IMG/VR virus record: IMGVR_UViG_3300005825_000057 | Span: 37,534 to 101,533 of that record | From: a virus | Length of the DNA stretch: 64,000 bases | Strand: one strand, 5' to 3' | In this document: one piece after another, positions 26,516 to 53,299 of the stretch | Numbering within the stretch: the stretch's first letter is position 1 | How the letters are laid out: the number at the start of each line of letters is the position of its first letter | Notes under the pieces: generated by a model | The model's input: the letters and a program-made list of their open reading frames with translations, nothing else | Database searches by the model: none | What the model was told of the DNA's origin: nothing | Translations under genes and position numbers: made by a program

Positions 26516-26597
26516 GGCCTCGTGGTGAAATTGGCATACACGCAAGTCTTAGGAACTTGTGCCGCAAGGCGTGTGGGTTCGAGTCCCACCGAGGCCA
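26516..26597 (+). tRNA. tRNA-Leu(UAG)
   Basis: Canonical class II, CAAGT-CTTAGGA-ACTTG. Confidence 0.95.
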
Positions 26598-26616
26598 CTT
26601 TAATTTGGAGAATATT

Positions 26617-44057: not shown

Positions 44058-45167
44058 ATGCTATTAACACAAGAACAAAAACACGCCATTTTATCTTTGG
44101 TAAAAGGCGTAAAACAAGACGTTCAAGTTCAAACTTTGGGCGGCTATGCGGGAACGGGCAAGACAACAACAATCAAGAATGTCAGAGAATCTTTAAAATC
44201 CAAAAAAATGAATTTTGCAGTTGCGGCCTACACAGGCAAAGCCGCAAATGTTTTGAGAGGCAAAGGAATAGATGCCTCCACAATTCATAGACTCATTTAT
44301 GCGCCATTCAAAAACGAAAACGAAGAAACTATCTGGTATGTAAAAGATAAGTTTCATCCTGATATTATTGACATTCAAGGTTTTATCATTGATGAAGCCT
44401 CAATGGTCAATAAGGAAATTTATCATGATCTAGTTTCATTTCAAAAACCCATTATCTTTGTAGGCGATCACGGCCAACTAGAGCCGATTGGTGGACATAA
44501 ATTTAATCTTATGTCCGAACCGATGTACAGATTAGAAGAAGTGCATCGAAATGCTGGTGAAATTGCTATCTTTGCCGAACATCTTCGCAAAGGCAACACA
44601 GCATCGAGTTTTACTGCCGCTGAAAAAGTACAGCTTGTTAAAGCTACTGCCATTCACAACGATCACCTTGCTGGGGTCGATCAGGTCATTGTTGCGTTTA
44701 ATGGACAAAGAGTTGAAATCAACAACCGGGTCAGGTCATATAATCGCCTTGATTATGTTTACTTGTCTGTTGGCGAAAAAGTAATTTGCTTACGCAACAA
44801 CCACAAAGAAGGATTGTTCAACGGTCAACAAGGAACTGTGACCGCTATTTCTGATGATGGGGATCACTTTGATTTCCGCACAGAAGATAATTATTTCTTT
44901 TACAATATTCTTTTCGATCCAGAAATTTTTGGTCAAGAAAAACCAGAACTTGATTTCAGAAAGAAAGAGAATCCTTTTGATTATGCTTATGCAATTACTT
45001 GTCATAAAGCACAAGGGGATGAATTTGGTTCTGTAATTGTTTATGAAAAAGAATGTGATCTTTGGGAACATAAAAGGTGGGCTTATACTGCGGCAAGTCG
45101 AGCTTCCAAATCTTTGATTTGGGTTCTTGAAAATGCACCCGCCCGATTCATCCCTAAGTATTTGTAA
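44058..45167 (+). CDS. SF1B helicase (Dda / RecD-like)
   Basis: GYAGTGKTT, DEASMV, GDHGQLEP, YAITCHKAQG, YTAASRA. Confidence 0.92.
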   Translation: MLLTQEQKHAILSLVKGVKQDVQVQTLGGYAGTGKTTTIKNVRESLKSKKMNFAVAAYTGKAANVLRGKGIDASTIHRLIYAPFKNENEETIWYVKDKFHPDIIDIQGFIIDEASMVNKEIYHDLVSFQKPIIFVGDHGQLEPIGGHKFNLMSEPMYRLEEVHRNAGEIAIFAEHLRKGNTASSFTAAEKVQLVKATAIHNDHLAGVDQVIVAFNGQRVEINNRVRSYNRLDYVYLSVGEKVICLRNNHKEGLFNGQQGTVTAISDDGDHFDFRTEDNYFFYNILFDPEIFGQEKPELDFRKKENPFDYAYAITCHKAQGDEFGSVIVYEKECDLWEHKRWAYTAASRASKSLIWVLENAPARFIPKYL

Positions 45168-45176
45168 ACAACCTGC

Positions 45177-45205
45177 TTTACAAAAATAAATACTCGTGGT
45201 ATAAT
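45177..45205 (+). promoter_or_regulatory. Promoter of the RNase P RNA gene
   Basis: TTTACA-N17-TATAAT, 7 nt before helix P1. Confidence 0.8.
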
Positions 45206-45212
45206 CCTCCAT

Positions 45213-45453
45213 GATTGGCGTGTTCCGAGTCTGCGCTGGCGGCGTAAGTCGTTAGAGGAAAGTCGGGCCACATCTGCTCCTTGTGGGAGAGTTCGCTCGT
45301 TAGCACCACAATGCGTGCAAGCCGTACAGACCTAGCCGGTGAGCAGGGCTATGATGGTCGGGTAGGTGCAGTTATCCATAACCGGGTAGCATGGTGAGAA
45401 CCATAGAAAAATGCAGACATAGAACAGAAGTCCGCTTACGGGAACCGCCAGTC
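45213..45453 (+). ncRNA. rnpB: RNase P RNA, minimal
   Basis: GAGGAAAGTC (CR-I) and AACAGAA..GCTTA (CR-V); P1, P2 (GTCTGC/GCAGAC), P3, P4 with bulged U, P18-like GAGA hairpin. Confidence 0.9.
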
Positions 45454-45481
45454 TCTTTTTGTTCAAAAGGAGACTATTCAT

Positions 45482-45949
45482 GTGAGGGCGTCCATGATCC
45501 ATGTCACCGATCACGCAAGAGAAAGGTGGCACAAAAGAGCATCCATTGGAGGAAATGAGAATGTACATGATATTATCGACGCAGTTAAGAAATCGAAATT
45601 CATCAAGAAAAATCAACCATTACCTTTTGGATTACCCCGTTTACCGGGCACAGTGTATTCCTTAAACAATGGTGTTGTGTTCGTCATGGAAGCCATGACG
45701 ATTGATGAGTTTAGATTGGTCACAGTGATTACCGAAGACGAAAAGGCTGTCATAAAGAAAGCCACAGGACCACCAAAGAGAAGACTAGCTTTACGACAGA
45801 AGCGACTGATTCGTAAATCACTAGATAAGAAAAGAGAGATATTCAAAGATGAGTCAGGTACTAATCACAAAAACCGCACTTCTCGTAAAGAAAGACGGAA
45901 AAAAGCCCCGTCGTGCGAAGAAATTGACGGTTTTGACTCATCTCCGTGA
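45482..45949 (+). CDS. Basic protein with RelE/DUF4258-like N-terminus
   Basis: VTDHARERW..LVTVIT, Lys/Arg-rich tail. Confidence 0.5.
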   Translation: MRASMIHVTDHARERWHKRASIGGNENVHDIIDAVKKSKFIKKNQPLPFGLPRLPGTVYSLNNGVVFVMEAMTIDEFRLVTVITEDEKAVIKKATGPPKRRLALRQKRLIRKSLDKKREIFKDESGTNHKNRTSRKERRKKAPSCEEIDGFDSSP

Positions 45950-53064: not shown

Positions 53065-53215
53065 TGAAATTGTGATCGACTATGGCAATGTTAATATATG
53101 CCAATTGGGAGATTTGAAATTTCGTGTTGACAATTGGCGTAAAAAGTATAAAAAGAAAAAGGTTTGGCGTTCTATTGAAGAAGAATGGCACCCTACTGCC
53201 GAAGTGGTGGAATAG
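53039..53215 (+). CDS. Mini-gene: ribonucleotide reductase active-site-like fragment plus tail
   Basis: TNPCNEI..NICQLG then KKKKVWRSIEEEW. Confidence 0.5.
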   Translation: MKSLTNPCNEIVIDYGNVNICQLGDLKFRVDNWRKKYKKKKVWRSIEEEWHPTAEVVE

Positions 53216-53283
53216 GCAGACACAACGGACTTAAAATCCGTTGCTCCGTAAGGGGCGTGCGGGTTCAAGTCCCGCCTTCGGCA
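53198..53283 (+). tRNA. tRNA-Leu(UAA), isolated
   Basis: Canonical, ACGGA-CTTAAAA-TCCGT. Confidence 0.95.
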
Positions 53284-53299
53284 CTATCCAGAGAGTAAT

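Follow-up and report, generated by a model that had tools for sequence, protein, structure and literature searches.

Introduction

RNase P RNA, the ribozyme that trims new tRNAs, is seen as a housekeeping molecule that is universal in cells and essential to them, and the locus described here raises the question of whether a virus may carry such an RNA of its own. If viruses do so, the autonomy of phage translation reaches as far as catalytic RNA, beyond the tRNAs, tmRNA and synthetases. The DNA under study, referred to below as the window, is a stretch of 64,000 nt corresponding to bases 37534-101533 of the 101.5 kb IMG/VR virus record IMGVR_UViG_3300005825_000057. CheckV gives this record a completeness of ~21%, so that the record is one part of a very large phage genome; the window contains replication genes of phage type, with a DNA polymerase and several helicases. 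An original prediction, made from the letters of the window, proposed that an intergenic segment encodes a minimal RNase P RNA of ~241 nt, transcribed from its own promoter, with an intact catalytic domain (C-domain) and a strongly reduced specificity domain (S-domain).

Anatomy of the 241-nt RNA

The candidate gene sits in an ORF-free gap. Its motifs were mapped directly onto E. coli rnpB; pairwise and MAFFT alignments misplaced the middle of the molecule, partly because the heptamer CGGGUAG occurs twice in it. The features of the locus are as follows (positions are those of the window; + indicates the strand).

44058-45167: RecD/Pif1-like helicase gene, upstream neighbour of the mini RNase P RNA gene
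45177-45205, +: sigma-70-type promoter, near-consensus (11/12 matches); -35 TTTACA at 45177-45182, 17-nt spacer, -10 hexamer TATAAT at 45200-45205; extended -10 TGgTATAAT with TG at 45197-45198
45213-45453, +: mini RNase P RNA gene, 241 nt, bounded by both P1 strands
45213-45226, +: P1 5' strand, pairs with 45441-45453; 13 bp, U45221 bulged
45229-45234, +: P2 5' strand GUCUGC, pairs with GCAGAC at 45413-45418
45237-45254, +: P3 hairpin, strands 45237-45243/45248-45254, 7 bp including three G-U; GNRA loop GUAA at 45244-45247
45255-45264, +: CR-I GAGGAAAGUC, identical to E. coli 61-70 (10/10, A-run and bulged U included)
45260-45268, +: P4 5' strand, pairs with 45430-45437; bulged U45263 is the equivalent of E. 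coli U69
45269-45272, +: P5 5' strand CACA, pairs with 45314-45317; A-C mismatch at the innermost position
45274-45279, +: P6 pseudoknot 5' strand CUGCUC, pairs with GAGCAG at 45341-45346 in the P17 loop
45282-45310, +: S-domain remnant, a P7-like stem of 5 bp (45282-45286/45306-45310) enclosing a 3-bp hairpin GAG-UUCG-CUC (45289-45298) and a 7-nt joiner
45317-45321, +: J5/15 GCAAG, identical to E. coli 246-250; A45319 is the equivalent of A248
45321-45367, +: P15-P16-P17 arm; P15 45321-45323/45365-45367, P16 45329-45332/45356-45359, P17 45333-45337/45347-45351
45360-45364, +: L15 3' side GGGUA, identical to E. coli 291-295 (equivalents of G292, G293 and U294)
45371-45390, +: extra hairpin between P15 and P18, 7 bp, GUUAUCC/GGGUAGC; absent from E. 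coli
45391-45404, +: P18-position hairpin AUGGU-GAGA-ACCAU, 5 bp, GNRA loop
45405-45413, +: J18/2 (CR-IV region) AGAAAAAUG, 7/9 positions matching E. coli 328-336
45419-45438, +: J2/4 and P4 3' strand (CR-V); ACAGAA at 45424-45429 identical to E. coli 347-352
45430-45437, +: P4 3' strand GUCCGCUU, followed by A45438, where GCUUA ends
45441-45453, +: P1 3' strand
45482: GTG start of the next ORF, downstream neighbour of the mini RNase P RNA gene

All the elements named in the original prediction, which were P1, P2, P3 with its GUAA loop, CR-I, P4 with the bulged U, the AUGGU-GAGA-ACCAU hairpin, the AACAGAA..GCUUA segment and the promoter, were recovered exactly where it had placed them. To these the present analysis adds the P6 pseudoknot, P5, P15-P17, the GGGUA of L15, J5/15 and the extra hairpin.

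The catalytic domain is indeed intact, as had been proposed, with CR-I, J5/15, L15 and the ACAGAA segment identical to those of E. coli and with helices that covary among the relatives described below. A45319 takes the place of A248, the residue in contact with position -1 of the substrate, and the GGU of L15 corresponds to the site that binds the 3'-CCA of the tRNA. Both of these vary little or not at all among family members, and the same is true of the bulged U and the A-run in P4. The claimed loss of the specificity domain was likewise borne out: the stub including its flanking joiners measures ~33 nt, compared with the ~155 nt of E. coli (P7-P14, CR-II and CR-III), and the deletion boundaries are common to the family. 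A kink-turn or T-loop was sought by eye within the stub and nothing convincing was found.

The two copies of CGGGUAG are located at 45359-45365, in the L15 loop, and at 45383-45389, in the 3' strand of the extra hairpin, whose enlargement is specific to the window; the second copy may be a local duplication.

Homology, covariance models and covariation

When the whole window was searched with Rfam at gathering thresholds, only tRNAs were matched and no RNase P was obtained. Under permissive filters the best match to the RNase P clan, in an output that collapses overlapping matches and gives this one, was to RF00373 (archaeal RNase P), running end-to-end with 18.1 bits and an E value of 0.0038, the gathering score being 84. 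No match to the bacterial model RF00010 (E <= 0.001) was present in the phage's own record, and the copy in the window does not reach the RF00010 gathering score of 100 bits. The single-sequence fold of the RNA is modestly better than those of shuffled sequences (z = -2.14). On the scores of the public models and this z value alone, the case would be open.

The relatives decided the matter. Viral contigs were scanned for GAGGAAAGTC followed by AACAGAA...GCTTA at reduced spacing, and this pattern gave 25 loci falling into three size classes. Two of them, L004 and L013, were rejected as chance pattern matches in coding sequence; the remaining loci also have in common GUGCAA, CGGGUAG, GAGAUAAAUGA and the complementary pair CUGCU/GAGCAG. 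A core covariance model (R1) covering CR-I to CR-V was built, 21 strong members were then aligned, and a second model (R2) was built from 19 family members with the window left out. With this leave-one-out model the RNA of the window is matched from end to end at 143.5 bits (E about 2e-33); genuine E. coli rnpB is recognized as well, between CR-I and CR-V, at 25.8 bits (E about 2e-4). A covariance-model match, the check proposed with the original prediction, was thus obtained weakly with the public models (RF00373 at 18.1 bits against 84, RF00010 giving none), and the strong support is that of the family-specific model.

Covariation across the 21 aligned members points in the same direction. 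Standard pairs occupy 97.0% of the 756 cells, as against 36-44% when the partners are slid by 1-3 columns; both-sided changes are seen in 27 of the 36 pairs, P4 and P6 pseudoknots included; and the covariation score is 0.52, compared with 0.06-0.10 in the slid controls. None of 500 shuffles reached the observed pairing and covariation values. P4 and P6 had no part in the model. In the same 21 sequences, pairing reaches 99.4% in P4, where 4 pairs covary, and 96% in P6, where both-sided changes occur in 5 of the 6 pairs. The helices of the P15-P16-P17 arm are paired in 100%, 97.6% and 100% of cases, respectively, all of them covarying. RNAalifold applied to the seven closest sequences predicted P1, P3, P4, P5, the P7-like stem with its inner hairpin, P15-P17 and the two 3' hairpins, and 37 of the 54 predicted pairs were compensated. 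By constrained folding P1, P2 and P3 could be formed in the window and, with hardly an exception, in its 20 relatives; P1 measures 10-25 bp in all 21 members, and P2 has 5-6 bp throughout the family with differing sequences.

Because of the leave-one-out score and the covariation across relatives, we consider it confirmed that 45213-45453 is a true RNase P RNA homologue; the claim of a phage-encoded minimal RNase P RNA of ~241 nt is upheld by the covariance modelling, the covariation counts and the comparison with E. coli rnpB alike.

The members of the family differ in their 3' half. The P18-position hairpin is present in 7/21 aligned members, namely the window and six relatives, which also keep the extra hairpin, while in most of the other 14 members P15 runs straight to J18/2; P6 is kept in 21/21. 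Within the subgroup of the window, the relatives have a shorter extra hairpin, in some of them with GNRA-type loops (GCAA, GAAA).

Relatives in viral and cellular genomes

The contigs with viral family members are 39-343 kb long, and the gene is found within a dense tRNA array or next to one. In one relative (L007, 236 nt) the RF00010 score, 105.5 bits, exceeds the gathering score of 100. Three of the contigs, those of L005, L009 and L011, also have tmRNA genes no more than a few kb from large tRNA arrays, and the L005 phage contig has in addition a GOLLD RNA (199.7 bits) near its large tRNA array.

Nine strong matches were found in cellular metagenome-assembled genomes (MAGs), mostly from Gemmataceae and other Planctomycetes, adjoining tRNA arrays and scoring 55-83 bits with RF00010. 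In one Gemmataceae MAG that has a mini copy, a canonical RNase P RNA of ~447 nt (179 bits) is located on another contig, which makes the mini form in that genome an accessory copy and not its sole RNase P. The same genome contains two sub-threshold RF00010 matches lying ~250 nt apart on one contig, L109 (G002:C117:60008-60371; 364 nt, 90.2 bits) and L111 (60619-61042; 424 nt, 65.8 bits). Matches in CPR bacteria and in archaea, which scored ~20-30 bits with the family model, were rejected as family members and are taken to be the short RNase P RNAs of those organisms.

Searches by other routes were negative. With blastn, which is insensitive for RNAs as divergent as these, the element, the 10 kb around it, L007 and L008 gave no match among 50,697 deposited phage genomes, and no related viral loci were recovered with the flanking helicase as query. 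A full-text literature search, of incomplete journal coverage, yielded no description of a phage-encoded RNase P RNA. Standard annotation misses the mini RNase P RNAs because the Rfam thresholds fail on them.

Promoter and gene boundaries

The proposal that the RNA has its own promoter agrees with our analysis, the TTTACA-17-TATAAT element matching the consensus at 11 of 12 positions and having an extended -10 TG besides. The -10 hexamer ends (45205) 7 nt ahead of G45213, the first base of P1, and the promoter would set the start of transcription at that very base. Sigma-70-type promoters in the same register precede relatives L006 and L010 (TTTACA-17-TACAAT), L003 and L025; those family members that abut tRNAs are probably co-transcribed with them.

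At the 3' side, a U-rich run, UCUUUUUGUU, directly follows the P1 3' strand, and a search for an intrinsic terminator at the locus found none. Positions 45450-45475 can form an 11-bp hairpin, AGUCUCUUUUU-GUUC-AAAAGGAGACU (fold z = -2.46 for 45440-45495), which takes in the final 4 nt of P1 and sequesters AAGGAG, the ribosome-binding site of the ORF starting with GTG at 45482. Owing to this double overlap, P1 formation and translation of the downstream ORF could be mutually exclusive in read-through transcripts.

Short contigs from metatranscriptome libraries of three studies span 45234-45472 at >=95% identity, and one of them crosses the 3' end of the mini RNase P RNA into the next ORF. Such contigs are a weak hint of expression, for which contaminating DNA could also account; they cannot show transcript ends, and the absence of cover upstream of 45234 is no evidence of a start. 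A riverine metatranscriptome contig represents a close variant with two differences, A45302T and C45304G, both of which fall in the stub of the S-domain, within its unpaired joiner.

tRNA genes, CCA-adding enzyme and RnpA

The window has 17 tRNA genes, of which 16 form an island (22384-26598) and one stands at 53198-53284; the other 37.5 kb of the record have no tRNA genes. Unlike many of its relatives, the mini RNase P RNA gene stands alone, ~19 kb from the island. By our own count, position -1 is a T in 14 of the 17 tRNA genes, and CCA is encoded in just one of the 17, so that the conserved GGU of L15 could act only after CCA addition.

A 425-aa ORF of the PolyA_pol/CCA-adding enzyme family (PF01743, 84.7 bits; G000:C1:22354-22737, locus L115) is encoded in the same record, ~15 kb upstream of the window. 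This gene fits with tRNA genes that lack an encoded CCA, and its presence together with the RNase P RNA suggests a phage kit for tRNA maturation. The absence of rnpA noted earlier for the window holds across the 101.5 kb record, in which (~21% of the genome) PF00825 found no match; there was also none in the records of five relatives, two of which are 96-98% complete.

As regards its composition, the phage tRNA set is almost wholly made up of Leu (CAA, CAG, TAA, GAG, TAG), Ser (GCT, TGA, GGA, CGA) and Tyr (GTA), that is, of class II tRNAs with a long variable arm; two Phe tRNAs and a 91-nt 'Thr' that is doubtful complete it. Paralogues have common acceptor stems and differing anticodons. Such a set may serve to replace tRNAs lost to a nuclease that attacks those with a long arm.

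Proposed function and alternative explanations

Judged by its sequence and by the covariation of its helices, the mini RNase P RNA is a miniaturised form derived from bacterial type A RNase P RNA. We propose that, once transcribed, it works with host RnpA to cleave the 5' leaders of phage pre-tRNAs and would thus provide a capacity that does not depend on rnpB, a reading to which we assign a probability of about 0.7. A transcript beginning at the first base of P1, as the sigma-70 promoter would produce, is predicted to fold into a complete catalytic domain comprising P1-P6, P15-P17 with L15, the P18-position hairpin and the extra hairpin. In the solved bacterial holoenzyme the known contacts of RnpA with the RNA all lie in the catalytic domain and, since this domain is retained, the mini RNase P RNA would be expected to bind host RnpA in the infected cell. 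The specificity domain of cellular RNase P stacks on the tRNA elbow; with the mini RNA, the substrate would be positioned through its acceptor stem, position -1, leader and 3' end, and not by the distance to the elbow. Removal of the 5' leaders from its own pre-tRNAs would give the phage an RNase P capacity independent of continued expression of host rnpB during the burst of its own tRNAs. The suggestion in the original prediction that the RNA matures the phage tRNAs with relaxed recognition of the elbow is plausible and in keeping with this context.

What leads us to this proposal is the retention of contact and active-site nucleotides, the association with tRNA genes and the published activity of the isolated C-domain. 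Cleavage by the isolated C-domain of the E. coli RNA takes place whether or not the protein is present; a P6-type interaction governs how efficient it is, and in an RNA lacking the S-domain P18 can be left out (PMC5839562). The pattern in our family, in which P6 is always kept and P18 often lost, matches those in vitro results. Against an enzyme stand the A-C mismatch in P5, the position of the gene apart from the tRNA island, the lack of an encoded CCA in most of the phage tRNA genes and the missed Rfam thresholds.

A modest fold z value (just -2.14) and a best Rfam score of just 18.1 bits are what one would see if short RNase P-like motifs had come together by chance in an intergenic region, and a large S-domain deletion along with sub-threshold Rfam scores for the window's copy might equally be expected from a decaying, functionless relic of a captured host rnpB. 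The leave-one-out E value of about 2e-33 and a covariation above all controls leave practically no room for the former, and two real chance pattern matches (L004 and L013) were recognized as such and discarded. A relic is very improbable as well, though slightly less so: every helix, two pseudoknots included, is maintained by compensatory changes across 21 diverged copies, which are not recent identical ones; the family has its deletion boundaries in common; the core nucleotides are intact; and a dedicated near-consensus promoter is in place. Both chance and decay are effectively excluded by the covariation and the leave-one-out score.

Two further explanations accept a functional RNA, and we regard each of them as unlikely, to a similar degree. 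The RNA might be a decoy or competitor that soaks up host RnpA, or forms a crippled holoenzyme with it, and so throttles maturation of the host tRNAs. In favour of a decoy, the domain that reads the elbow has been lost, RNAs consisting of the C-domain alone are poorer enzymes (PMC5839562), a strong promoter would permit a high copy number, and any activity would draw on the host protein, given that rnpA was not found in the phage record or in those of five relatives. A decoy, however, would not need substrate-contact nucleotides, yet these are invariant or nearly so in the family; a block of RNase P would also stop the maturation of the phage's own 17 tRNAs; and the relatives are embedded in tRNA operons. 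Alternatively, an active ribozyme could have been retargeted to non-tRNA or tRNA-like phage substrates, for which recognition of the elbow is unnecessary or harmful, candidates being hairpin-CCA-like structures, operon mRNAs, tmRNA and tRNA mimics in the tRNA island. The separation of the gene from the island in the window and the co-occurrence of relatives with tmRNA and GOLLD RNA are in line with this idea, but no specific alternative substrate was identified, the consistent association of the family is with ordinary tRNA arrays, and the T at -1 in 14/17 phage tRNA genes fits canonical processing.

The proposal that the RNA processes phage pre-tRNAs can be extended to the family as a whole. 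The members would then make up a widespread, undescribed class of phage RNase P that lacks the S-domain, acts through host RnpA or possibly with no protein, and allows large phages to mature their own tRNA sets independently of host rnpB; we judge the chances of this wider reading to be evenly balanced. In it, the RNA would be part of a tRNA kit together with the CCA-less tRNA genes and the CCA-adding enzyme.

Significance and comparison with known systems

If the proposal is true, the locus provides a catalytic RNA of the translation machinery that a virus encodes, and with it a naturally occurring 'C-domain-only' RNase P of bacterial type. It would also offer a natural, evolved answer to the question of what a minimal bacterial RNase P requires and what the S-domain contributes, a subject so far studied with deletion constructs. 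As small molecules rich in covariation, the mini RNase P RNAs are targets for structure determination and for ribozyme engineering.

By descent, the closest relative is bacterial type A RNase P RNA (E. coli M1 RNA, rnpB, 377 nt; RF00010), with which the mini RNA has in common P1-P5, the P6 pseudoknot, the P15-P16-P17 arm with its internal L15 loop, and P18; it is P6, P16 and P17 that mark its C-domain as bacterial type A. The differences lie in the S-domain, of which P8-P14 (CR-II and CR-III) are replaced by a stub, in the total length of 241 nt, in the extra hairpin between P15 and P18, and in the setting, as the mini gene is located on a phage record without rnpA and the window's copy stays below the RF00010 threshold.

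Essentially the same domain content is found in the engineered Eco CP RPR, a C-domain-only E. coli RNA (PMC5839562). That molecule is a laboratory deletion construct of reduced efficiency (PMC5839562), whereas the mini RNA is a natural, covarying gene having its own promoter and a P7 stub.

The closest analogue by architecture is the archaeal type T RNase P RNA of Thermoproteaceae (Pyrobaculum and relatives), which, by comparison with its published description, has likewise lost most of the S-domain and retained the C-domain, and which was also missed by the existing Rfam models at the time of its discovery (PMC3579882). Type T is the cell's own enzyme; its P2 has 3 bp, its P15 is shortened, a linker of 2 nt joins P5 and P15, and its C-domain resembles that of archaeal type A (PMC3579882). 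Neither the 3-bp P2 nor the archaeal type A-like C-domain is found in the mini RNA, whose P2 has 5-6 bp, whose C-domain is bacterial (P6, P16-P17 and the GGU of L15) and which is an accessory phage copy.

The only virus-related precedent found in our literature search is the 'RNase P-like' RNA of camelpox virus and other orthopoxviruses, which is similar to the present case in being virus-encoded and in its proposed resemblance to RNase P RNA (PMC3001073). The camelpox candidate has some similarity in secondary structure and no pre-tRNA processing activity (PMC3001073); the phage RNA differs from it in having the full conserved core sequence and helices supported by covariation.
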